From a virus (lineage: Duplodnaviria; Heunggongvirae; Uroviricota; Caudoviricetes): 22,105 bases of DNA. The translations under genes and the position numbers were made by a program. The stretch lies in IMG/VR virus record IMGVR_UViG_2671180609_000024; one strand, written 5' to 3'. Under the pieces are notes generated by a model. That model did not search any database. It had not been told where the DNA came from and was given only the letters and a program-made list of their open reading frames with translations. Shown here piece after piece: positions 6,068 to 20,530 of this stretch. Every line of letters begins with the position of its first letter. Position 1 is the stretch's first letter.

Positions 6068-6649
6068 CTTTATCAATGACTTATCTCCCGACTTCCCGTC
6101 TTGCTTTTCCTAAACAGAACAATCGTAGAATATTCTTGAAGGGTTAGATCGTCACTGTTTTCTGTTCGATACTGTGACATTCAGCACTTGATTCGCTATG
6201 GATCTGACAGGAAGGTTTTGAGCGAAAATCTGCAGTTATTCAGTCGTTTTCTTATCGGTCACCATTATTCTTTTAGACATTGATCCTACAAAGCTGCCGC
6301 AAAGTTGGTGGTGGGAACTGAAGTTGCGTAGAGAAGGGGTCAATACCCGGAGGCAAACATGGGCTGGCAAAAGTGTAGCGGTATTAGGCGCAGCTATTTA
6401 GCCTAGTTATGTTTTATGAAAACTTGATATCATATAAGTGTCTTACTTATTGGCTGTAAATAAGTTTTTCCTAAGGAATTGTTTCTTGAGTATCATTTGT
6501 AACTGTAACGGAATTTATAATCCTTTGCTTTATTGTTACGGTATTTTTTATCACACCCTATTTTTAGTGGTTTTTTATACTGAAGTTTGGCAAAGTGAAC
6601 TTTATATACATATACTTCATCCTGGTTTCAGTTAAATTGGGGGGATGAT

Positions 6650-7393
6650 ATGGCAACTACATGTTCAGTTATATTGATTTTGGAGTCCTTTGATGTTTAT
6701 TTCGGAAAAGAGAGTGTGTTTCTGGAGAGAGGTTCATCTGTACTTGTCGACTCTAGCTCTAGAGATTTTTTCCTGACATATCCTGAAAGAGTGATAGTGG
6801 CGGATTTTGGCGCTGAGTTTATTAGTCGCTATTTGAAAGCTAATAACTTAAGGGATATTTCTGATTGTAGGGAATATCCATCTTATTTAAAAATAAACTT
6901 TGCTGACTTCAGTTTAATTAAAGGATTAATTAGTTGGGCTAATCACTGTGCTGAATACATAGAAATTTTTGATGAGTCTATTGCTTTTACATGTCTCTCT
7001 GCATTTTCTTCTGAAAAACAATTTGGAGTATTTCTGTTTGGATGTTTGAAAAGCACAGGGGCTAAAGTTAAAACGATTATTCATACGGATTTATCTGCAC
7101 CATGGCGTCTTAAGGATATATCATCAAGATTATATCTCAGCGAAAGTTTACTAAAGAGGAAATTGAAAGAAGAGGGGGTATCATTCAGTAAGATCATACT
7201 TGATGAGAGGATGCAAATGGCTGAATATTTACTCAGCACTCGTTGTTATCCTATTAGTAAAGTAGCTAAGGTCTGTGGTTATGCCAGTGTCTCATACTTT
7301 ACTTATGTATTTAGACGTTATTTTGGTGTTTCTCCAAGTCAATACTCTCAGAGGAGTTCAGAAAGTAAAATTCTTACTCACCAGGGAATCTGA
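6650..7393 (+). CDS. AraC/XylS-family transcriptional regulator (AppY/GadX/Rns-like)
   Basis: C-terminal dual-HTH AraC domain (WRLKDISSRLYLSESLLKRKLKEEGVSFSKIILDERMQMAEYLL ... VCGYASVSYFTYVFRRYFGVSPSQY) aligns by eye to AppY. Very AT-rich gene with a long AT-rich leader; SD GGGGGATGA before the ATG. Confidence 0.85.
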   Translation: MATTCSVILILESFDVYFGKESVFLERGSSVLVDSSSRDFFLTYPERVIVADFGAEFISRYLKANNLRDISDCREYPSYLKINFADFSLIKGLISWANHCAEYIEIFDESIAFTCLSAFSSEKQFGVFLFGCLKSTGAKVKTIIHTDLSAPWRLKDISSRLYLSESLLKRKLKEEGVSFSKIILDERMQMAEYLLSTRCYPISKVAKVCGYASVSYFTYVFRRYFGVSPSQYSQRSSESKILTHQGI

Positions 7394-7395
7394 TC

Positions 7396-7872
7396 ATTGT
7401 TCTTGCCCCCTTATTTCCAGACAGGGGGGGTATCTTAAGTTAACGTTACCCGCTGACGTCGATATTCTCGCGGAGAGCGATAACCCAACGCACTGTGCGG
7501 ATGGTTTTCATTGTAATGTTCGATCGCCACTGCAAGATTATGCAATGCCGTTCTTACATTCGGTTTCGGCATGAACGCGATGTAGTCTTCCTTCATCGTT
7601 TTCACGAACCTTTCTGCAATTCCATTACTCTGAGGACTGCTGATTGCCGTTGTGCAGGGCTCCAGATTCAACTCTCTGGCGAACTGCCGTGTTTCATGCG
7701 CTCTATACGCTGAACCGTTATCTGTCAGCCACTGGATGGACTGTTCCGGTACTTTATCGCCAAAGCGTTTTTCTATCGCTCCTAACATGACATCCTGCAC
7801 TGTCGCTTTATCGTAACCTCCCGTGCTTGCGGCCCAGTCTATGGCTTCACGATCGCAACAGTCCAGGGCGAT
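7396..7872 (-). mobile_element. IS2-like (IS3-family) element remnant: 3' part of the orfB transposase plus a terminal inverted repeat; 5' truncated
   Basis: Translation ...[38 protein letters not shown]...[18 protein letters not shown] matches the IS2 InsD C-terminal region as I recall it. Terminal sequence around 7396-7420 (revcomp CCCCCCCTGTCTGGAAATAAGGGGGCAAG) resembles an IS2 end. In-frame stop at 7873-7875. Confidence 0.8.
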
Positions 7873-8147
7873 TCATCTGGGCCAATCCTTGCTCATAACA
7901 GGCATTCACTTCAGTCATGGCAGAAAGGTATGCATGCTGGAGAAGTCGTGAAAGAAAAGAAGACTGCTGCGCCGTTTGTCGTCACGTTTATCTTCATTGG
8001 CTATGCAAGTCGTAATACAAGGTGGGACAAAACTGAGACACATAAGGCCTCGCAATGGCTTGCAAGGCTTTACATGTTTTGATGTGGTGGGACGTGTGAG
8101 CGCAGTGTTGATGGGGTAATGCTTTGAATTAGAAGCGGATTCTTATA

Positions 8148-8193
8148 ATTCGTAATGCGAAGGTCGTAGGTTCGACTCCTATTATCGGCACCA
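8148..8193 (+). repeat. Direct repeat of the tRNA-Thr 3' end (46 bp, exact): att junction between element 1 and the P4-like element
   Basis: ATTCGTAATGCGAAGGTCGTAGGTTCGACTCCTATTATCGGCACCA is identical to positions 1399-1444 of the full tRNA gene. Confidence 0.9.
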
Positions 8194-8355
8194 TCTCAAC
8201 TTCCTCAAACGTCCGTATTAGTCCATAAAATCTCTGATTTATAACATTTTTTATTCTTTTAAGTCCATAGTAGTCCGTAACCATCCAGTAGAATCCGGTA
8301 CTGAATGTGTATAGGATTGTGTATATGTTCCTGTTCGGTCTGGATTCCTATACAC

Positions 8356-9537
8356 ATGCCTTTAAACGATATGCAGATTCGCCGCGCTAAGCCTGAAGCT
8401 AAAGCCTATACATTTGGAGATGGGCTAGGGTTGTCATTACTTATAGAACCTAATGGAAGCAAGAGTTGGCGGTTCCGCTATCGCTATGCCGGCAAACCCA
8501 AAATGATCTCGCTTGGTGTTTACCCAACGATCACCCTTGCCGATGCTCGTTCCCGTCGTGATGAAGCTCGAAAACTTGTGGCAGAAGGAAAGAACCCTAG
8601 TGAGGTTCGAAAAGAGCAAAAGCTAGCTATGCAAACAGAGTCAGAGAACGCCTTCGAAAAGATAGCCAGAGAGTGGCATCAACTTAAATCTGCTAAATGG
8701 TCGGCGGGATATGCATCAGACATCATGGAAGCGTTTAAGAACGACATTTTTCCTTATGTCGGAACAAGGCCTGTGGGAGAGATTAAACCGCTAGAGCTGC
8801 TGAACGTTCTGCGTAAAATTGAGAAACGTGGTGCGTTGGAGAAAATGCGCAAAGTGCGGCAGCGTTGCTCCGAAGTGTTTCGCTACGCAATTGCAACGGG
8901 TAGGGCGGAGTACAATCCTGCGGCTGATCTCTCCAGCGCTCTCGAAGTACACCAATCCAATCATTTCCCATTCCTAAAAGCTGATGAGATACCTGATTTT
9001 CTACGTGCCTTAGAGGGTTACTCCGGGAGTAAGCTTGTCCAGATAGCCACGAAATTACTGATGATTACGGGTGTGAGAACCATCGAATTACGCGCGGCAT
9101 TATGGCAAGAATTTGATCTGGATAACGCTATTTGGGAAATTCCTGCTGAAAGGATGAAAATGCGTAGGCCACATCTTGTGCCCTTATCATCTCAAGCGGT
9201 AGATTTACTCAATGAACTCAAGATCATGACAGGGAACTATCGTTATGTTTTTCCAGGGCGGAACGATCCGAATAGGCCAATGAGCGAAGCGAGTATAAAT
9301 CAAGCCATTAAGCGTATTGGGTATGGAGGAAAAGTCACTGGACATGGTTTTCGTCATACCCTTTCTACAATCCTGCATGAGCAAGGTTTTGAGAGTGCTT
9401 GGATTGAAATCCAGTTGGCTCATGTAGATAAAAATTCTATTAGGGGGACTTATAACCATGCTCAATATTTTAGTGGAAGGAAGTCTATGATGGACTGGTA
9501 CAGTAATTTGATATTTGAAAGACTAAAAAGGAGTTAA
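8356..9537 (+). CDS. int: P4-type tyrosine integrase (N-terminal arm-binding domain + catalytic domain)
   Basis: N-terminus MPLNDMQIRRAKPEAKAYTFGDGLGLSLLIEPNGSKSWRFRYRY is the classic P4/CP4-type integrase start; C-terminal HGFRHT ... Y catalytic motifs. Immediately follows the tRNA-derived repeat and reads away from it. Confidence 0.92.
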   Translation: MPLNDMQIRRAKPEAKAYTFGDGLGLSLLIEPNGSKSWRFRYRYAGKPKMISLGVYPTITLADARSRRDEARKLVAEGKNPSEVRKEQKLAMQTESENAFEKIAREWHQLKSAKWSAGYASDIMEAFKNDIFPYVGTRPVGEIKPLELLNVLRKIEKRGALEKMRKVRQRCSEVFRYAIATGRAEYNPAADLSSALEVHQSNHFPFLKADEIPDFLRALEGYSGSKLVQIATKLLMITGVRTIELRAALWQEFDLDNAIWEIPAERMKMRRPHLVPLSSQAVDLLNELKIMTGNYRYVFPGRNDPNRPMSEASINQAIKRIGYGGKVTGHGFRHTLSTILHEQGFESAWIEIQLAHVDKNSIRGTYNHAQYFSGRKSMMDWYSNLIFERLKRS

Positions 9538-9540
9538 TTT

Positions 9541-9957
9541 GTGTCTCAACCACTTTCGGAAATATTGACATGGGATGATGAACAATGGGAGGTATTTGTC
9601 CATGATTGGCTTATTGTCTGTAAATCAGATGATTACCCGTGGAGCGAACGTTTGGGAGGAGCTGGAGATAAAGGTAGAGACGTTGTTGGATATAAATCGG
9701 ATCCTAACGTAGAAGGTTATTCTTGGGATAATTATCAATGCAAACTGTACAAAAAAAGTTTAGGGTTCTCTGATGTTGTAGTTGAGTTTGGAAAACTTAT
9801 CTATTTTACTCTGAATGGTGATTATCCCATCCCTCAGAAGTACTTTTTTGTGGCACCCTATGATTTATCTACTACATTTTCTAATTTATTGAAAAATAAA
9901 AACGAGCTTAAAAAAGCAGTCCTTGATTCATGGGATTCAGCAATTTCAAAAAAATAA
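9541..9957 (+). CDS. Cargo gene 1: small protein with a PD-(D/E)xK (Mrr-like) nuclease motif; possibly the N-terminal part of a longer protein (see findings)
   Basis: GTG start 7 nt after SD AAGGAG and 3 nt after the int stop. Motifs GGAGDKGRDVVGY and, about 20 aa later, YQCKLYKK (D ... QxK) look like a restriction-endonuclease-like core. Very AT-rich. Confidence 0.6.
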   Translation: MSQPLSEILTWDDEQWEVFVHDWLIVCKSDDYPWSERLGGAGDKGRDVVGYKSDPNVEGYSWDNYQCKLYKKSLGFSDVVVEFGKLIYFTLNGDYPIPQKYFFVAPYDLSTTFSNLLKNKNELKKAVLDSWDSAISKK

Positions 9958-10547
9958 CTAAAAAGATTGATATTCCATTAGATGATGAAATAAAAAAATA
10001 TATTGAGGATTTTGATTTTAGTATTTTTTACTCTCTACCCTTATCATTGATTTTAAATGATATTGCAAATACACACCTTTATTTTAAGTACTTTAACGAG
10101 CTGTATGTCGTGAGAATCCCTCCAAATGAAATTCCAACATACAATTCAAAAAAAGAGTCTGTATATGTTAATGCACTGCTTCAAGCCTATTCAGAGCATG
10201 GAAATAAAACTTATAGTTCTTTCTTAGAGCTTGATGATCCATACAGACGACACTTTAATAATAGTAGAAATGATTTTTATTTTGCATCTTCGCTTGAGGT
10301 TTTTGTCCGCGAAGTATTTAAAGATGATGTATTCAAAGCATTGAAATGTTACATTTCATCTTCAATTGAACCCGTCTTTTATGAAGACCATAATTATGCA
10401 TTTATTAGGTGTAATGCAGTCTTGAAGCAGGCTGTTCTGACACCAATTGCACATTCAGTACTATCAAAAATATGTGAAGCAAATGATAAAAAAGGAATAT
10501 GCCATCATTTGGTTAATGATGGTGAAGTAATTTGGACGGTGAGATAA
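9930..10547 (+). CDS. Cargo gene 2: hypothetical protein (205 aa as listed); may be the C-terminal part of gene 1 joined by a shift in an A7 run
   Basis: ORF overlaps gene 1 by 28 nt in another frame; both frames pass through the A7 homopolymer at 9948-9954. No domain recognised by eye. Confidence 0.5.
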   Translation: MGFSNFKKITKKIDIPLDDEIKKYIEDFDFSIFYSLPLSLILNDIANTHLYFKYFNELYVVRIPPNEIPTYNSKKESVYVNALLQAYSEHGNKTYSSFLELDDPYRRHFNNSRNDFYFASSLEVFVREVFKDDVFKALKCYISSSIEPVFYEDHNYAFIRCNAVLKQAVLTPIAHSVLSKICEANDKKGICHHLVNDGEVIWTVR

Positions 10548-11005
10548 TGGTTAGAATTTATAATTCAAGTTTAGAAGTGGCATGTCGAATGGCGAAAGTG
10601 CTCGTCGCTATTTATCCTTCTTCATTAAGCCTTGAACGGCTTATTTGTTTTGATTTTATTTTAGTAAATCTTAAGGATTTTTTACCTGAAGAGATTAGTC
10701 TTCATCCTCCAATACCCCGTAGAGATGCTCAGTTAGCCCTAAAACGAGAGATTGTTTTAGAATCATTGGCTTTGTTGCAAGGCTATGAACTAGCCTCAAA
10801 AATTTATACACATCGTGGTTTTGTATATAAAGCTTCTGAAAAAACATATGCATTTACAAATTCTCTACATAATGAATATGTTGCGCAGATGGAGCATAAT
10901 ATAAATTTGGTGGTTAAGTTATATAGTGATATTCCTGATGAGCAGTTGCAATCAATTATAAAAAATAAAATTGGCAAATATGATATGGAATTTAATTATG
11001 AATGA
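10547..11005 (+). CDS. Cargo gene 3: hypothetical protein (about 152 aa)
   Basis: ATG overlaps the gene-2 stop (TAATG at 10545-10549); its stop overlaps the next gene's start. Same AT-rich composition. Confidence 0.55.
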   Translation: MVRIYNSSLEVACRMAKVLVAIYPSSLSLERLICFDFILVNLKDFLPEEISLHPPIPRRDAQLALKREIVLESLALLQGYELASKIYTHRGFVYKASEKTYAFTNSLHNEYVAQMEHNINLVVKLYSDIPDEQLQSIIKNKIGKYDMEFNYE

Positions 11006-11630
11006 CAATTTTTTTACGTTCAGAAAAATAAAGGTAACCGGATTCAATAAATTAGATGCTATAATTGAATTTGGTTCTAAATTGACTATTTTATATGGTG
11101 GTTCTGACTCTGGAAAAACATACATATATTATTTGATTCGATATTTATTAGGGAGTGAAAAACTAAAAAATAAAGATATCGATCATGCTCAAGGTTATGA
11201 TTTAGCCTATCTGGAATTTAATTTTCAAGGTAGGGTAATGACAATTGAGAGGTCTCTTCAGGATAGCGCCCATTACAGATTATATGATTCGAGCATTGAA
11301 AATGTTAGTGAAGCTAATCTGTTGATGGTTTTTTCCAAAAGTGCTTCGTCTAAAAAGAGTTTTTCATCATACTTTTATGGTAGGTTGAATTTCAAAGAGG
11401 CTAAAGTAAGAACAAACTTAAGTAATACTCTTCATAAATTTAATCTTAATAATGTTTTTGAATTTTTTTGTATTGATGAATTAAGAGTGTTAACTGAGAA
11501 GTCGTTAATTCTTTCTGATATTCCTAGCGAGGAGACAAAAAGAAAGTCTGAATTTAAATTCCTTTTAACTCAGAGAGATGATACTAACTCCTTAGCAGAA
11601 AAACCAAATAAAAAAGCAAGATATTTTTAA
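10998..11630 (+). CDS. Cargo gene 4: N-terminal head of an SMC/Rad50/RecN-like ABC ATPase (Walker A)
   Basis: FRKIKVTGFNKLDAIIEFGSKLTILYGGSDSGKTYIYYLIRYLLG is the canonical SMC-like N-terminal strand-loop-Walker A arrangement (GxxxxGKT). The ORF ends at a TAA inside a T5/A7 tract and the next ORF continues in the same frame. Confidence 0.65.
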   Translation: MNDNFFTFRKIKVTGFNKLDAIIEFGSKLTILYGGSDSGKTYIYYLIRYLLGSEKLKNKDIDHAQGYDLAYLEFNFQGRVMTIERSLQDSAHYRLYDSSIENVSEANLLMVFSKSASSKKSFSSYFYGRLNFKEAKVRTNLSNTLHKFNLNNVFEFFCIDELRVLTEKSLILSDIPSEETKRKSEFKFLLTQRDDTNSLAEKPNKKARYF

Positions 11631-11660
11631 AAAAATCAAATTGCAAATATTTATGAGGAA

Positions 11661-12251
11661 TTGAAAGCGCAATTAATTTATCCTGAATATGATCAAGTCA
11701 TTGTTTCAAGAGAACTTGAGAAAGTAGAGCAAGATATTGAATCATCGAAAGATATATTGAAAGGTATTGTTGATGCACTTGATGATAAGAAGCAATTATT
11801 AAAAGAGTTAAGTGATGAATTATATTCAATCAGTGACAGGGAAAAATACTTATCATTACTCATTGAAAGATTTAGTCTTCTTAAAGACCAATACTTTATA
11901 GATCTACAAAGAATAGATGTTGTATCACAGGCGAATTTCTATTTAAATAATTTTGCAGATATTTATTGTGAGTTCTGTAATACACCGCAAAAAAAAGAAA
12001 ATGAAATATCATATGATGATTGTTTTTTGTCGTGTAATGCAGAAAAATTGAAAATCAAAAGCCAGCTGAAAGGATTAATTGAATCAATCGGATCTAATGT
12101 TCGCGAACATGAATTAATTATGTTAAGAAAAAATGATGTTAATGAAATTTATCAATCAGAAAAAAGTGATTTTAAGACGTTAGAAGATAAAAATATAAAA
12201 CAATACATTCATCTCTTGAATCACTTTATGAATATAAAGACAATCTTTTAA
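11661..12251 (+). CDS. Cargo gene 5: coiled-coil segment of the SMC/Rad50-like ATPase with a Cys4 cluster (CxxC-x14-CxxxC); probably not independently translated
   Basis: Heptad-rich sequence (EKVEQDIESSKDILKGIVDALDDKKQLLKELSDELYSI...), cysteines in YCEFCNTPQ...DDCFLSCN. Same frame as gene 4, separated by a single TAA; the listed start is a TTG with no convincing SD. Confidence 0.5.
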   Translation: MKAQLIYPEYDQVIVSRELEKVEQDIESSKDILKGIVDALDDKKQLLKELSDELYSISDREKYLSLLIERFSLLKDQYFIDLQRIDVVSQANFYLNNFADIYCEFCNTPQKKENEISYDDCFLSCNAEKLKIKSQLKGLIESIGSNVREHELIMLRKNDVNEIYQSEKSDFKTLEDKNIKQYIHLLNHFMNIKTIF

Positions 12252-12817
12252 TGGATCACACAAAACATAGCATTCTATCTTCATTACAAGATAAAGAAGA
12301 TGATGTTGACGAACTTAAATACTCCGCCGAGGACTTTGACTCCTTAACAGTAGCTGATTTGTATGATATAGAAATAGCGATGCAAGACTTTTTGAATGAT
12401 ATAAATTTTGAAAATTCTAAAGATAACAAAGTGCGATTTGACGAAGATACATATGACTTTAATATCAATGGGAAACGCCGAGGAATGTTTGGTAAAGGTA
12501 CCCGTGCAGTAATGCATGCTATATTTACCATTTGCTTTGCGGAATTTTTATCAAGAAAAGGGAATCCATTCATTGGATTTGTTGTGCTTGATAGTCCATT
12601 AGTGACGCACTTTGATAAAGATAGAGGGGGTTCTCTATCGGATGTTAATAGCGTCAGTCTCAGTGATTCATTTTATCACGCATTAATCAAAAGGGACTAT
12701 AATTTCCAGATTGTAATTCTTGAGAATAAAGGTCCGACGTTCCAAATAAAAATTAATGATGCAAATAAAATCCATAACTTAAATAAGAATGGAAGCTCTG
12801 GTTTTTATCCTGTTTAA
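12251..12817 (+). CDS. Cargo gene 6: C-terminal head of the SMC/Rad50-like ABC ATPase (signature-like region, Walker B/D-loop, H-loop)
   Basis: FGKGTRAVMHAIFTICFAEFL followed by PFIGFVVLDSPLVTHFD (hydrophobic strand + D, Walker B-like) and a downstream His (FYHAL). ATG overlaps the gene-5 stop (TAATG). Confidence 0.6.
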   Translation: MDHTKHSILSSLQDKEDDVDELKYSAEDFDSLTVADLYDIEIAMQDFLNDINFENSKDNKVRFDEDTYDFNINGKRRGMFGKGTRAVMHAIFTICFAEFLSRKGNPFIGFVVLDSPLVTHFDKDRGGSLSDVNSVSLSDSFYHALIKRDYNFQIVILENKGPTFQIKINDANKIHNLNKNGSSGFYPV

Positions 12818-13175
12818 TACATTAAAAATATAACTGCTAATTGGGGTGCTCGAAATTATATTTCGTTTCGAGCGCTCAGTTCATTTCTAAATAATTTGCA
12901 AAATTATTTTGGGTACTTTCGCCTCTACACTTCCTTCGGGTGGTTCCACAATAATGGATCTCACCGGCGTTTGATATTTTATAATCTAACCCCTTAGCGC
13001 GCGCAGCCCCCCACGCCTGCTCGCTTCGCTTAACAGACTGGTTTTCATGCATTCCGCAAATCGTCTCAGAAGCCACCACACAAGGGCTTTCGCGTCAAAA
13101 ATGGTGCATGAGAATCATGCGTTTTCATGCGCTATAGACATGCACTCATGCGCTCTCAGGCCAGCCAGGGAAAAG

Positions 13176-13226: not shown

Positions 13227-13499
13227 TCAGACAGGAATTTGCTGACGGCTTGACAGCTTTGACGCGGAGCCATAGCGATTGAGAGTTTGCTGTTGTTTTT
13301 CCGGCATTTGTGCTTTCTCTGATTCCTGTTCATTGCGCCGGGGCTTCATGATTATCGTATCCACACTTTCCAGTGCGGTAAATGTGTAGGAACATTCAAG
13401 ATTCTGGCACTGATACCATGAGCGTTTAACCGATGGTGCTTCATAGGCGGAGGTTCTGGCGTGTGCCGTCGTACCGCATTCGGGACATTTAAGTGCCAT
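13227..13499 (-). CDS. Ogr/Delta-family zinc-finger late-gene activator (single-domain, 90 aa)
   Basis: MALKCPECGTTAHARTSAYEAPSVKRSWYQCQNLECSYTFTALESVDTIIMKP aligns by eye with P2 Ogr (CPxC..AHARTS ... QCQN.xCS.TF..ESV). Confidence 0.85.
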   Translation of the reverse strand: MALKCPECGTTAHARTSAYEAPSVKRSWYQCQNLECSYTFTALESVDTIIMKPRRNEQESEKAQMPEKQQQTLNRYGSASKLSSRQQIPV

Positions 13500-13504
13500 T
13501 AATA

Positions 13505-14056
13505 TTACTCCTGCATGCCGTTAATGTAATCCAGACGTTGCTGAAAGCGCAGTTGTTGTGCAGGGGTGTAAGAGCTCTGGCAATCACGAACCATCATGGG
13601 GTCAGGCATCACACCGGATTCATCCAGAATCATACGATAATCCCCGGCAATTTCAGGCGGTGTTATTGCCAGCTGGCGAACCAGAGCATTGCGTAATATA
13701 CGGGACGCAACGTCAACCCCTCCGCGCCCCTTCAGGAACGGAGCCAGTGCAGATGTCAGGGCTGCTCCATTCGCCTGCATAAAATTGCTGAGAGCGTCTT
13801 CTGTGCAGGCCTCCATCAGTTGATGCTGCGAGTAAATGCATTCGCGCGCAGCACAGTTAATTTGCCATTTCAGCACATCCAGATGTTCCCGCTGTAATTC
13901 GAGCTGTCGAGCATAATCTGCTGGTTTTTCCATGGCAGTGAGGAGTGATTCTATCTGTTGTTCAACGGCTTTTCGGCTCTCACTATGTCCAGCCCACAGA
14001 ATACGGGCATTTCTAAAACTGATAAGCGCTTGGTCTGGAGTGACTCGGGCCATCAT
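13505..14056 (-). CDS. psu: Psu-like polarity suppression / capsid decoration protein
   Basis: Segment LDVLKWQINCAARECIYSQHQ ... LSNFMQANGAALTSALAPFLKG ... TPAQQ resembles P4 Psu as I recall it (KWQ.N.AA ... FMQ.HG.AL..ALAP.L.G ... TPAQ). Size 183 aa against 190 aa. Confidence 0.7.
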   Translation of the reverse strand: MMARVTPDQALISFRNARILWAGHSESRKAVEQQIESLLTAMEKPADYARQLELQREHLDVLKWQINCAARECIYSQHQLMEACTEDALSNFMQANGAALTSALAPFLKGRGGVDVASRILRNALVRQLAITPPEIAGDYRMILDESGVMPDPMMVRDCQSSYTPAQQLRFQQRLDYINGMQE

Positions 14057-14805
14057 ACTGCTTTCTCCTTCTCAGCACGTTCCTGACGAACCTTCATTTT
14101 ATGCATAGCTGCTGGAGAGAGTTTATTACTGAAATCCAGACGGGCCGCATAATCCGGGGCAACTCCCGCCAGTTTAAACACGGGGTCCTGTTCGGGCATC
14201 GCATCGTTAGTCAGAGCCGGTCTGGTGATATGTTTATGAATAAAATCTTTCAGCAGTGTGTCCGGGTCATTAACTGAATGCACCACACCGACAACTGCGC
14301 TGGCTTCCCTGCCCATTGTTGATTTGAGCAGGCTTAGTGTCTGGATTAGTGCTTTTCCATGCGACTGCATAAAATCTTCCCAGATTTGTTTTGCGCGAAT
14401 ACCCACAAGGGTGTCGTGCGCGTGGATATACTTTCCGGCTAATTCCGCAGCCTCCTGCGGCAAAAGTGCATTTTCGCTTTCCTGAGCCGCCAGCAGCTCA
14501 TCAAAATCCTCAAGCGTTTCTCGTCCCAGCGCAATTTCCGTGCGCAGTTTTTTCATTTCCTTTGAGACTACGCCCTGACTTTCACGAAATAGCGTGCGCC
14601 ACTCCTCATTCAGGGCGTTCGTCGTGGCTTCCATTTCAGCGCGGCGCTGGCGGATTGTCGCAATATTATCCGCTGCCGCTTTTTGCTGACGACGTGCTTC
14701 AAGCCATGCAGATTTGGTGGCATTCACTTTCTCAAGCGCCTGTTGCGTCGAAACAGGGATAGAAATTTCAACGATCGGGTTATTGTTCTGTTCTGGGATT
14801 GTCAT
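14053..14805 (-). CDS. sid: Probable Sid-like external scaffold (capsid size determination) protein
   Basis: 250-aa alpha-helical, Ala/Glu/Gln-rich protein, first gene of the minus-strand operon and overlapping psu by 4 nt; size and position match P4 Sid (244 aa). Called by context, not by a recognised motif. Confidence 0.5.
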   Translation of the reverse strand: MTIPEQNNNPIVEISIPVSTQQALEKVNATKSAWLEARRQQKAAADNIATIRQRRAEMEATTNALNEEWRTLFRESQGVVSKEMKKLRTEIALGRETLEDFDELLAAQESENALLPQEAAELAGKYIHAHDTLVGIRAKQIWEDFMQSHGKALIQTLSLLKSTMGREASAVVGVVHSVNDPDTLLKDFIHKHITRPALTNDAMPEQDPVFKLAGVAPDYAARLDFSNKLSPAAMHKMKVRQERAEKEKAV

Positions 14806-16771: not shown

Positions 16772-17094
16772 TGATATGCTGTGAATCTCTTCTGGCACTT
16801 CGTGCCGCTCTGTATCGCCGTGCCGTTGCCTGTGCCTGGCTGGCTCTAAGCAATCATCAGGAACGTTATTCCGGCCTGACGCTCGCTGAACTTGAAGATG
16901 CCATAGCCCGCGAGCTGGAAGGGTTCTATCTGCGCCAGCATGGGCAGCAAAGAGGGCTGGAAATTGCCTGCGCGTTGCTTTCGGATCTGATGGAGTCGGG
17001 GCCGCTTAAAGCCTGTCCGGTTCTCTCACTGCTCGGAATGACGGTCATGGATGAACTTTGTTCCCGTCACCTCAACAAACCAGCGCTGCACTAA
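16771..17094 (+). CDS. Hypothetical protein of the P4-like early operon (107 aa)
   Basis: SD GGAGGTGG upstream; start overlaps the previous stop; ends 13 nt before the alpha start. Confidence 0.55.
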
Positions 17095-17107
17095 GGAGGG
17101 CCGCACA

Positions 17108-19441
17108 ATGTCAGGAATGAAAGTTAGCCAGGCTGAGAAAGCAGCTCGGGGTCACTGGTCAAGAATTTTACCTGCGCTGGGCGTAAATGTACTGAAAAAT
17201 CGGCACCAGCCCTGCCCGGTCTGTGCCGGGAAAGACCGCTTTCGATTTGATGACCAGGAAGGGCGGGGAACGTGGTTCTGTAACCAGTGCGGGGCAGGTG
17301 ATGGCCTGGCGCTTGTAAGTAAAGTACTGGATGTAGGCATTAGTGAAGCGGCAGACAGAATAAACGGCATTATCGGAAACCTGCTGCCAGTATCTCAGGG
17401 AATGCTTGAATCTGGTTCTCCTGAAAAAGAGGACGGGAGAAAAGCTGCAGCAGTGCTGGCTGCCCGTTTGTTTGATAAGTCCCGCCAGACCACTGGCAAT
17501 GCCTATCTGACGAGTAAAGGGTTTCCTGCACTGCCTTGCCGGGAATTAACCGCTATGCATAAAGTCGGTGGTGTGGCATTTCGCGCGGGAGATCTTGTCG
17601 TTCCATTGTATGCAGATGGAGAGCTGGTAAATCTGCAGTTAATCAACGCTAATGGGGGCAAATGCTTCCTTAAAGGCGGTCAGGTTAAGAATGCCTTTTA
17701 CCTGGTTGAAGGTACTGCCAAAGCAGCCAAACGGCTCTGGATAGCGGAAGGATATGCCACCGCACTTACTATCAACTATCTGACTGGCGATGCTGTCATG
17801 GTGGCCTTTTCGTCCGTCAATTTCCTTTCCCTGGCGAGCATTGCCTGCAGTGAGTACCCAACGCACCAGATAATTATTGCTGCTGACCGCGATCTCAACG
17901 GTGCGGGGCAAACAAGGGGCGCAGCTGTTACCGGGGCCTGCAATTGCACAATGGCGCTCCCGCCTGTGTTTGGTGACTGGAACGATGCATTCACGCAAAA
18001 CGGCGAAGAAGCCACCCGGCATGCAATTCATGAAGTAATAAAACCAGCTGTTGCCAGCCCCTTCGACACAATGAGCGAAGCTGAATTTACCGCGCTGAGC
18101 GTCAGCGAAAAAGCGCAGAGGGTAGTGGATCACTATAAAAATTCACTGGCAGTAGACCCGAACGGGCAGCTCCTTTCACGCTATGAGGCGGGGGCCTGGA
18201 AAGTTATCTATTACGCCGATTTTGCCCGTGATGTCGCTGCGCTGTTTCAGCGCCTCGACGCACCTTTTTCATCCGCGAAAATTGCGTCTCTCGTGGAAAC
18301 CCTCAAACTGATCGTTCCGCAACAGCAGAATCCGGCGCGGCAACTTATCGGATTTCGCAACGGTGTGCTCGATACCCGGACAGGATTGTTCAGCCCGCAC
18401 GATAAGAAGCACTGGTTACGTACGCTGTGCGAGGTGGATTACACGCAGCCCGTTGACGGTGAGTCACTGGAAACCCATGCCCCGGCATTCTGGCGCTGGC
18501 TGGATCGTGCCGCAGGTTTTAATCCTGAAAAACGGGACATTATTCTGGCTGCATTGTTTATGGTGCTGGCTAACCGTTATGACTGGCAGCTGTTTCTGGA
18601 GGTCACTGGCCCTGGCGGAAGTGGAAAGAGTATTCTTGCTGAAATAGCAACCATGCTGGCGGGTGAAGATAACGCGACCTCGGCAACCATTGAAATGCTT
18701 GAGTCGCCAAGAGAACGAGCTGCGTTAATAGGTTTTTCACTGATTCGACTTCCCGACCAGGAAAAGTGGAGCGGTGACGGGGCCGGACTAAAAGCCATCA
18801 CTGGCGGCGATGCGGTATCCGTTGATCCCAAATATCAGAACGCCTATTCAACCCACATCCCGGCGGTCATCCTGGCTGTGAACAATAATCCGATGCGCTT
18901 CACTGATCGTAGTGGTGGAGTTTCACGCCGAAGGGTGATCCTGCATTTCCCCGACCAGATAGCCCCGGAGGAACGCGATACCCAGCTCAAAGAGAAAATT
19001 GCCAGTGAGCTAGCGGTGATTGTTCGCCAGCTTATGCAGCGTTTCAGCGACCCAATGAGTGCCAGGACATTGCTTCAGTCACAGCAGAACTCCGATGAAG
19101 CGCTCACCATCAAACGTGATGCTGATTCAGCTTTTGATTTTTGCGGCTACCTTGAGGTCCTACCTGACACCACGGGCATGTTTATGGGGAACGCTAATAT
19201 TGTTCCACGTCAGCCTCGAACTTACCTCTACCATGCCTATCTGGTCTACATGGAGGCTAACGGCTATAAAAATACGCTCAGTCTGACCATGTTTGGCAAG
19301 GGGCTACCGTTAATGCTCAAGGAATATGGGCTGCAGTATGAGAAACGACGGACCAATCAAGGAATGCAGACTAATCTGGCCCTAAGAGAGGAAAGCAATG
19401 CTGACTGGTTGCCAAAATGCGATGAGTTTGCAGCGAAATAA
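17108..19441 (+). CDS. P4 alpha-like bifunctional primase-helicase (777 aa)
   Basis: SD AAGGAGGG before the ATG at 17108. N-terminal zinc-binding primase motif CPVCAGKDRFRFDD...GTWFCNQCGAGDG; central P-loop EVTGPGGSGKSIL (D5-type helicase Walker A). Length equals that of P4 alpha (777 aa). The listed ORF starts 19 codons upstream. Confidence 0.9.
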   Translation: MSGMKVSQAEKAARGHWSRILPALGVNVLKNRHQPCPVCAGKDRFRFDDQEGRGTWFCNQCGAGDGLALVSKVLDVGISEAADRINGIIGNLLPVSQGMLESGSPEKEDGRKAAAVLAARLFDKSRQTTGNAYLTSKGFPALPCRELTAMHKVGGVAFRAGDLVVPLYADGELVNLQLINANGGKCFLKGGQVKNAFYLVEGTAKAAKRLWIAEGYATALTINYLTGDAVMVAFSSVNFLSLASIACSEYPTHQIIIAADRDLNGAGQTRGAAVTGACNCTMALPPVFGDWNDAFTQNGEEATRHAIHEVIKPAVASPFDTMSEAEFTALSVSEKAQRVVDHYKNSLAVDPNGQLLSRYEAGAWKVIYYADFARDVAALFQRLDAPFSSAKIASLVETLKLIVPQQQNPARQLIGFRNGVLDTRTGLFSPHDKKHWLRTLCEVDYTQPVDGESLETHAPAFWRWLDRAAGFNPEKRDIILAALFMVLANRYDWQLFLEVTGPGGSGKSILAEIATMLAGEDNATSATIEMLESPRERAALIGFSLIRLPDQEKWSGDGAGLKAITGGDAVSVDPKYQNAYSTHIPAVILAVNNNPMRFTDRSGGVSRRRVILHFPDQIAPEERDTQLKEKIASELAVIVRQLMQRFSDPMSARTLLQSQQNSDEALTIKRDADSAFDFCGYLEVLPDTTGMFMGNANIVPRQPRTYLYHAYLVYMEANGYKNTLSLTMFGKGLPLMLKEYGLQYEKRRTNQGMQTNLALREESNADWLPKCDEFAAK

Positions 19442-19573: not shown

Positions 19574-20530
19574 TTATTTTTGAATTGATTTAAACATCCC
19601 ATCGAGTTGTAATTTATTTATGTCGGTTTTCTTTATGGCTTTAATTAAGTTTTCAATAACTTCCAAAGAAAAAATTACATCTTTCTTTTCAATTCTAACC
19701 CCCCCGTGGTGGCTGCAAGCATTAAGGATGTCCTTTGTAATTTCAACATCATTTTTCATTAATGGTTCATAGTCCAGAGCCTCAATAACAGAAACTAAAC
19801 TACCTAGCATTTGCTCTTGGTATTGAACGTTGTTTAAATGCATTATACGAATATTAACAAGCATGAGAATATATTCTAAATATCTCCTGGCAGTATTTCC
19901 TTTCTCTTGTAAAGAATCACGATCATATTCCTCAATACTCATGACTTCATTATGTAAAGAGGCTATTTTGTGCTCTGCTAATGAAATATTTATCGCATCC
20001 ATGAGGTTTCGTGAGAAGCCTGTAGATGTAACATGACCATTTGCGGGCCTTGTTAAAATACATGTAGTATAGCAATTTATATTTGGGGTCTGGATTGTCT
20101 CATTTACTCTTTTAACCGTTCTATAAACGTCTACCATATAAGAACCTGAGTTTTCAAATGAACATGAAGAGCATTTTGTATTATATATTCTATTTAGAGA
20201 TAACTGATTGTGATAGTATCCCTTTAAGAAAGCATATATAGTGTCATTAAACTCGACAAACACAACGGACTCAATATATATATGGAATTTATCATTGGGG
20301 TGCCACTCTAATTCAAGTCTTCTTGTAGAGTCATCAAAGGAAAAGTTTGAAATAAAATCCCAGTTACCTAAATCTATAAAATCAACGATATTTCTACCTG
20401 CACCATGGATATTTTTATTTATTAAAGTTGTGATTGAGTTTTTTATAATGTCCCAATCATGAATTTCATGATCGAATTTATTATTGATGGTTTCTTTTAT
20501 TTGATTGGAAAAGTTTGAATAACTAGTCAC
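19574..20530 (-). CDS. Orphan AT-rich cargo gene, hypothetical protein (318 aa), between alpha and the distal att remnant
   Basis: Long ORF with a GTG start preceded by a GAGG SD; strongly AT-rich, Asn/Ile/Lys-rich composition unlike the flanking P4-like genes. No domain recognised by eye. Confidence 0.6.
   Translation of the reverse strand: MTSYSNFSNQIKETINNKFDHEIHDWDIIKNSITTLINKNIHGAGRNIVDFIDLGNWDFISNFSFDDSTRRLELEWHPNDKFHIYIESVVFVEFNDTIYAFLKGYYHNQLSLNRIYNTKCSSCSFENSGSYMVDVYRTVKRVNETIQTPNINCYTTCILTRPANGHVTSTGFSRNLMDAINISLAEHKIASLHNEVMSIEEYDRDSLQEKGNTARRYLEYILMLVNIRIMHLNNVQYQEQMLGSLVSVIEALDYEPLMKNDVEITKDILNACSHHGGVRIEKKDVIFSLEVIENLIKAIKKTDINKLQLDGMFKSIQK

Follow-up and report, generated by a model that had tools for sequence, protein, structure and literature searches.

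A predicted zinc hook at the coiled-coil tip of an inactivated Lamassu LmuB gene in Escherichia coli O157:H7

A cluster of four cysteines encoded at positions 11967-12035 of a 22,105-nucleotide viral record (IMG/VR record IMGVR_UViG_2671180609_000024; the whole of this stretch is hereafter called the window) very probably represents the coiled-coil tip of LmuB, in which C324 and C327 form the zinc hook and the second pair is no conserved ligand pair, in a Lamassu system that is not made in O157:H7. The zinc-hook reading of the LmuB apex is correct but has already been published (10.1101/2025.03.14.643221; PMC12663957; PMC10586767).

In the frame of the open reading frame (ORF) at 11661-12251 on the plus strand, the 69 bases translate to CEFCNTPQKKENEISYDDCFLSC, a CxxC-x14-CxxxC pattern (CEFC-x14-CFLSC) that reproduces exactly both the cluster and the peptide quoted in the original prediction. 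The repaired LmuB has 605 residues and six cysteines (158, 324, 327, 342, 346, and 512), and four of them falling within 23 residues would be expected with p ~0.002 under random placement (p ~0.05 for the CxxC alone). The first pair, CEFC (11967-11978, plus strand; C324 and C327 in repaired numbering), was identified as the conserved zinc-hook CxxC by conservation, AlphaFold, and profile alignment. It is followed by N, and the usual Pro and Gly of CPxCG are missing. The codon of C342 (TGT, 12021-12023, plus strand) is a lineage-specific change from Tyr to Cys that arose by a single A to G transition, the P. mirabilis copy having TAT. The codon of C346 (TGT, 12033-12035, plus strand) is partly conserved in the homologue alignment and lies three residues before the invariant E349.

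A Lamassu operon in the cargo slot of a P4-like satellite

The window comes from E. coli O157:H7. Of 5426 complete E. coli genomes, 309 carry the stretch 9500-12900 at an identity of at least 99%, Sakai and EDL933 among them, and all 55 of the serotype-bearing records listed for it are O157:H7. The 309 genomes with the lmu locus form one family of at least 99% identity, which rises to at least 99.8% in all but one of the assemblies listed. The Sakai annotation names the region prophage Sp2, a P4-like phage.

On its left, the cargo slot is bordered by a P4-type tyrosine integrase gene (intS, 8305-9537, plus strand; Pfam Arm-DNA-bind_3, Phage_int_M, and Phage_integrase). The right border (13227-14805) is made up of three minus-strand genes, namely delta/ogr (13227-13499; Pfam Ogr_Delta and annotation), psu (13505-14056; Pfam Psu and annotation), and sid (14053-14805; annotation), beyond which follow, in order, alpA, ash, DUF5375, and the alpha primase-helicase gene (17051-19441). 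The Lamassu block between int and delta/psu spans 3.3 kb at approximately 30% GC, and because of the surrounding gene order (integrase, delta/psu) we consider this low-GC block to be cargo in the int-to-psu slot of a P4-like satellite.

Two further CxxC...CxxC motifs in the window are ordinary P4 features: the one at 17213 (plus strand) lies in the zinc-binding domain of the primase-helicase (PF08273), and the one at 13487 (minus strand) lies in the Ogr/Delta zinc finger (PF04606). Just past the alpha primase-helicase gene, an ORF of 318 amino acids (19574-20530, minus strand; approximately 31% GC) had no match in Pfam or PADLOC and may be a second cargo gene of the Sp2 satellite.

The three-gene block is a short type II Lamassu (ABC-3C) operon composed of lmuA with CTD6, lmuC of the MC2 type, and lmuB, with ABC-3C corresponding to type II Lamassu in the literature (PMC10586767; 10.1101/2025.06.23.660979). 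The effector gene lmuA, with its C-terminal CTD6, occupies 9541-10547 on the plus strand as two ORFs (9541-9957 and 9930-10547), which match positions 10-140 and 141-333 of the PADLOC LmuA model PDLC03852; the second ORF carries Pfam CTD6 (PF20282, E=7.7e-30), an ABC-3C family. On the same strand, lmuC (10547-11005, in ORF 10532-11005) was recognized as the ABC-3C middle component MC2 by Pfam (PF20288, an ABC-3C family, E=6e-30), PADLOC (LmuC PDLC03871, E=2.9e-36), and the RefSeq annotation, and it appears intact. RefSeq labels the neighboring genes as ABC-3C proteins, and NCBIfam assigned no family to LmuA, LmuB, or LmuC.

The third gene, lmuB (10998-12817, plus strand), is a pseudogene for an SMC/Rad50-like ABC ATPase with a coiled-coil insert, and lmuA and lmuC lie directly upstream of it, in the same three-gene order as in P. 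mirabilis. Its three pieces (10998-11630, 11661-12251, and 12251-12817) are colinear on the 610 positions of the PADLOC LmuB model PDLC03863, which they match at 3-199, 210-412, and 428-608 with E=1e-49, 5e-22, and 5e-37; the intact P. mirabilis LmuB, 85% identical, matches the PADLOC LmuB model at E=3.4e-117. Pfam found AAA_23 in the first piece (ORF 10998-11627), no match in the middle fragment by itself, and only a below-threshold DUF3732 in the C-terminal piece. The Walker A motif or P-loop, YGGSDSGKT, is translated from 11094-11120 on the plus strand (GGSDSGKT from 11097-11120), and its residues G34, S36, D37, G39, and K40 are invariant in the homologue alignments. The Walker B variant GFVVLDS (12575-12595, plus strand) has the form hhhhD-S, with D531 invariant and S532 present in 173 of 179 homologues, and fits the pattern hhhhD[Q/S/T/E] described for short Lamassu (PMC12663957). 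No SbcD-like gene, as a candidate Mre11/SbcD partner, was found within the cargo, where the neighbors of lmuB are the LmuA and LmuC genes.

A 344-residue protein from a Logan assembly (P0027) matches the N-terminal 36% of the repaired LmuB at 96% identity and gives a Pfam MC2 (LmuC) match as well. It could stem from a gene call that fuses LmuC with LmuB, or from a further broken form of the locus.

Decay of the operon in O157:H7

The original prediction had spoken of a repaired ATPase, and such a repair is indeed needed. A premature TAA stop at codon 211 of lmuB (11628-11630, plus strand) stands in place of a Leu codon that strain LSU61 retains as TTA; the homologues also encode Leu there. Further downstream, one A has been lost from a run that is A5 in the window (12189-12193, plus strand) and A6 in P. 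mirabilis, and the frameshift caused by this 1-bp deletion splits the middle piece of lmuB from the C-terminal one. In lmuA, a frameshift at an A7 run (9946-9952, plus strand) separates ORFs 9541-9957 and 9930-10547, and the two ORFs align end to end with the intact 335-residue LmuA of P. mirabilis. Two of the three operon lesions are single-base changes within A-runs.

The A-run frameshifts were considered as possible sequencing errors, and this was rejected given that the locus is at least 99% identical in 309 complete genomes; it is also opposed by the RefSeq annotation, which splits the genes alike in the listed genomes, among them Sakai and EDL933, with two exceptions. The Sakai annotation marks lmuB as a pseudogene. 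LSU61, which is also O157:H7, keeps TTA at the equivalent of 11629 and has an insertion in a different A-run, with an extra A at the equivalent of 12159 that leads to a stop of its own. The lesion sets therefore differ between the sublineages represented by LSU61 and the window, and decay must have gone on after these lineages diverged. We sought an intact E. coli copy of lmuB among the 309 genomes with the locus, and every copy examined was broken. As read from these sequences, lmuB is inactivated in the O157:H7 genomes examined, and the gene is a member of LmuB by descent and not a working one. Because both lmuB (nonsense mutation and frameshift) and lmuA (frameshift) are broken, Lamassu is not operating in O157:H7.

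Intact LmuB homologues of 606 residues are found in Proteus mirabilis (P0001, 85% identical) and Pantoea alhagi (P0002, 73% identical). The closest intact operon is that of P. mirabilis (6543-9821), which encodes an LmuA of 335, an LmuC of 152, and an LmuB of 606 residues. It sits in an integrase-bearing island beside smpB and not in a P4-like satellite, and thus the same cargo moves among different mobile elements.

Conservation of the hook and its surroundings

A profile search of 1.84 billion representatives returned 4436 relatives at E<=0.001. We aligned 179 full-length LmuB sequences, consisting of the listed representatives from this search and the homologues of the first homologue search, and additionally used a smaller alignment of 27 sequences that reached down to 20% identity. 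C324 and C327 are each Cys in 179 of 179 homologues and are also invariant in the smaller alignment. Among their neighbors, Pro occupies +1 in 120 of 179 and Gly occupies +4 in 157 of 179 homologues, giving the consensus C-P-x-C-G. The second pair is different. Position 342 is Cys in none of the 179 homologues and is instead a conserved hydrophobic position (I in 48, V in 42, L in 37, Y in 29, and F in 17), with Tyr in the two closest homologues (85% and 73% identical). Position 346 is Cys in 79 of 179 (44%) and otherwise A, V, I, or S; in the 27-sequence alignment, C346 is retained only in the clade of at least 43% identity, in every such homologue. Judging by these alignments, the cluster is an invariant CxxC joined by one partly conserved Cys and one private substitution at a conserved hydrophobic position. 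Conservation thus upholds the first pair of the predicted Cys4 cluster (179/179 each) and fails for the second (0/179 for C342 and 79/179 for C346). The conservation of C324, C327, and C346 in intact homologues also means that three of the four cysteines are older than the inactivation.

The helices on either side of the hook carry further conserved residues. On the ascending helix (approximately 11868-11912), R291, L295, Y299, D302, and R305 are invariant. On the descending helix (12042-12053), E349 is Glu in all 179 homologues and K352 is present in 163 of 179. By analogy with the solved Lamassu complexes, these seven residues probably form a docking surface for LmuC and the LmuA C-terminal domain.

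The intact P. mirabilis homologue P0001 gave no match to the Pfam model Rad50_zn_hook (PF04423) at E<=0.1, and the model scored only a sub-threshold 16.3 bits, against a cutoff of 24.3, in one distant homologue.

Predicted structure and structural matches

AlphaFold models were made for monomers of the intact P. mirabilis LmuB (with the family alignment) and of the middle fragment of the window (with a 78-sequence alignment). The AlphaFold2 model of P0001 (mean pLDDT 85.8) has a helix at 233-318, a loop at 319-338 that contains the CxxC, and a helix at 339-439. The model of the window fragment (pLDDT 92.6) likewise has a helix at 22-107, a loop at 108-127, and a helix at 128-205, and in the numbering of this fragment the hook cysteines 113 and 116 fall in the loop while C342 and C346 correspond to 131 and 135. 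Thus, the models put the CxxC at the tip of an antiparallel coiled coil that is inserted between the two halves of the head and whose arms are approximately 85-100 residues long. This agrees with the original prediction, which had located the cluster in the middle of the gene within a coiled coil (it is mid-protein, between two long predicted helices) and, as a possibility, at the coiled-coil tip. In the fragment model, C342 lies in the first and C346 in the second turn of the descending helix, a position that would be compatible with treble-clef geometry and that rules out a ribbon, as there is no second knuckle. Of the two options that had been offered for the apex, the zinc hook is therefore favored by the invariant CxxC, the consensus CPxCG, and the alignment with CPMCG of 9HQU, and the ribbon or Cys4 site is disfavored by a second pair that is helical and unconserved.

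A Foldseek search of the PDB returned LmuB chains (9uxh, 9hqx, 9hqu, 9nyg, and 9ux7) at E=4e-15 to 9e-12, and LmuB chains made up five of the top six and seven of the top eight matches, at an identity to the solved chains of only 13-14%. The fourth rank was held by 9a6c, an integrative model of B. subtilis YydD-YydB, and Rad50 and then SMC heads came next. The placing of Rad50 directly after the LmuB chains (and the one YydD-YydB model) bears out the expectation that this ATPase is nearer to Rad50/SbcC than to SMC proteins with a hinge. The family profile aligned with Salmonella LmuB (9hqu_A) at E=5e-18, with the hook columns on CPMCG (ESDCPMCGSH). A phmmer search of PDB sequences with the intact homologue found nothing relevant, and the LmuB structures were reached by the family profile only. 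When the hairpin model was searched in isolation, Foldseek gave no significant match; the best, amid generic coiled coils, were LmuB 9ux7_A (E=0.0066) and the human Rad50 hook 5gox_A (E=0.03), and this search was given no weight.

Comparison with known systems

Published LmuB has an ABC head, a coiled coil, and a zinc-hook dimerization domain, and in Salmonella Lamassu the hook is required for phage defence (10.1101/2025.03.14.643221). Cryo-EM has shown two LmuB hooks juxtaposed near LmuC and the LmuA C-terminal domain (10.1101/2025.03.14.643221), and the hook zinc was not resolved in the maps because local resolution was too low (10.1101/2025.03.14.643221; 10.1101/2025.06.23.660979). The hook of B. 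cellulasensis LmuB is 285-CQYC-288 at the distal end (10.1101/2025.06.23.660979), a CPxCG or similar motif occurs in many LmuB proteins (PMC10586767), and in short LmuB the copy number of CxxC (0, 1, or 2) has been mapped over the LmuB tree (PMC12663957).

The Salmonella enterica LmuACB (9HQU/9HQX) and Bacillus cellulasensis LmuAB (9UX7) proteins belong to the same family as the window's LmuB and share its split ABC head, an antiparallel coiled coil of approximately 100 residues, and a CxxC tip; these systems also resemble the window in their LmuA and LmuC partners and in the hhhhD-S form of Walker B. The window copy differs from both solved proteins in belonging to another subfamily, the one paired with MC2 and CTD6, in possessing the extra cysteines 342 and 346, and in being a pseudogene. 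Its hook reads CEFCN instead of the CPMCG of Salmonella LmuB. The top Foldseek match, Vibrio cholerae DdmC/LmuB (Lamassu Vc-Cap4; 9NY5/9NYG/9UXH), also comes from a short three-gene Lamassu, and its kinked coiled coil touches LmuC and the LmuA C-terminal domain with its apex (PMC12663957). However, Vibrio LmuB has lost the CxxC hook (PMC12663957), whereas the family of the window keeps it in 179 of 179 members.

Rad50 and SbcC resemble LmuB in that their antiparallel coiled coil rises from an ABC head and bears a CxxC at its apex, and Lamassu has been argued to descend from SbcCD (PMC12663957). The E. coli SbcC hook (PF04423) reads C506-P-L-C509-G-STSHP, and the LmuB consensus CPxCG is, like that hook, often followed by His 8-14 residues past the first Cys. 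However, the LmuB arms are far shorter than those of SbcC (1048 residues), at approximately 85-100 residues each in a protein of 605, and Lamassu has LmuA and LmuC in place of the Mre11/SbcD nuclease. The solved Lamassu complexes also differ from Rad50 in binding DNA ends at the side of non-engaged heads. Treble-clef and zinc-ribbon Cys4 sites are like the window in having a CxxC knuckle followed by two cysteines near a helix start, but the second pair of the window is unconserved (0% and 44%) and forms a CxxxC within a coiled-coil helix.

Extra His and Cys residues after the hook

Across the 179 homologues, His is enriched 10-15 fold at +9 to +14 from the first hook Cys, with a frequency of 0.17-0.28 at five of these six offsets (0.07 at +13) against a background of 0.018. 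Cys reaches 17% at +16 and 44% three residues before E349, with a background of 1%. At least two extra His or Cys residues lie between the hook and E349 in 152 of 179 homologues (85%), as compared with 4-6% for flanking coiled-coil windows of equal length. We considered whether this His-rich stretch was a new feature and rejected this in part: the hook of E. coli SbcC, CPLCGSTSHP, likewise has a His at +8, and at least part of the His enrichment is therefore ancestral.

In the MC2/CTD6-paired LmuB proteins, the extra His and Cys residues might complete an intramolecular site, or zinc might switch between intra-chain and inter-chain binding and so couple the opening of the hook to the release of LmuA/LmuC; we consider this proposal unlikely. 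The subclade of the window has no His in residues 328-349 (bases 11979-12044), and the number of extra ligands is one in the nearest relatives of the window (C346) and two in the window itself. If the proposal were true, the O157 change of Tyr342 to Cys would bring the extra ligands to two, where the closest intact members of the subclade have only one.

Alternative readings of the cluster

The cluster could be taken as an intramolecular four-ligand zinc site of the ribbon or treble-clef kind, in which the CxxC, C342, and C346 would hold one Zn per protomer and build a folded cap or a DNA-contact module. The low chance of finding four cysteines in 23 residues (p ~0.002) is in keeping with such a site, as are the predicted CxxC loop with its small beta-bridge, the treble-clef-like spacing of C342 and C346 (i, i+4) in the first two helix turns, and the homologues at large, 152 of 179 of which have at least two extra His/Cys and 44% of which have Cys at 346 against a background of 1%. 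However, the cysteine that completes the four occurs only in pseudogene copies: position 342 is never Cys in the 179 homologues and is a conserved hydrophobic position, with Tyr in the 85% and 73% identical proteins. C346 is missing from 56% of homologues, a ribbon would call for a second knuckle where a helical CxxxC is found, and the hooks of the two protomers are juxtaposed in the solved LmuB complexes. Moreover, 27 of the 179 homologues lack two extra ligands, so that only the CxxC is universal, which favors a 2+2 hook over the intramolecular site. We therefore regard the latter as very unlikely.

It is even less probable that the whole cluster is chance drift in a decaying pseudogene, functionless in the past as in the present. 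In those O157:H7 genomes that were examined among the 309 carriers, the gene is inactivated, and C342, a single A to G change found only in the lineage of the window, fits drift well. C342 is also the only one of the four that does, as drift is refuted for C324, C327, and C346 by their conservation: the first two are invariant in 179 intact homologues and the third is common to all homologues of at least 43% identity. We give the least credence, which is to say hardly any, to the idea of disulfides or a redox switch at the apex in place of a metal site. Clustered cysteines could in principle oxidize, and nothing more specific speaks for it, but LmuB resides in the bacterial cytoplasm, its invariant CPxCG is the signature known from Rad50/SbcC hooks (e.g., SbcC C506-P-L-C509-G-STSHP), and the motif is treated as a zinc hook in the literature (10.1101/2025.03.14.643221; PMC10586767; PMC12663957; 10.1101/2025.06.23.660979).

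Proposed mechanism and implications

The zinc-hook reading can be placed in a mechanism by analogy with Rad50/SbcC and the solved Lamassu complexes. LmuB is the proposed DNA sensor of short three-gene Lamassu, and two LmuB protomers would each contribute their CxxC to one shared Zn2+ in a 2+2 intermolecular arrangement. The zinc-bridged apex would then tie the LmuB dimer together beside the docking site of LmuC and the LmuA C-terminal domain, and docking of LmuC and LmuA at the apex may hold the effector inactive. According to the published model, LmuA would be released once a DNA end has been sensed and ATP has driven the heads to engage, and the freed LmuA would oligomerize to become the active effector.

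The main value of these results is a correct annotation, namely that of a documented LmuB zinc hook in a copy that O157:H7 has lost. The residue-level conservation map of the MC2/CTD6-paired LmuB subfamily is a useful by-product, and the extra His and Cys residues found past the hook in most members could guide mutagenesis in structural work on Lamassu. The locus also provides a worked example of a defence system decaying in the cargo slot of a P4-like satellite across a pathogen lineage.
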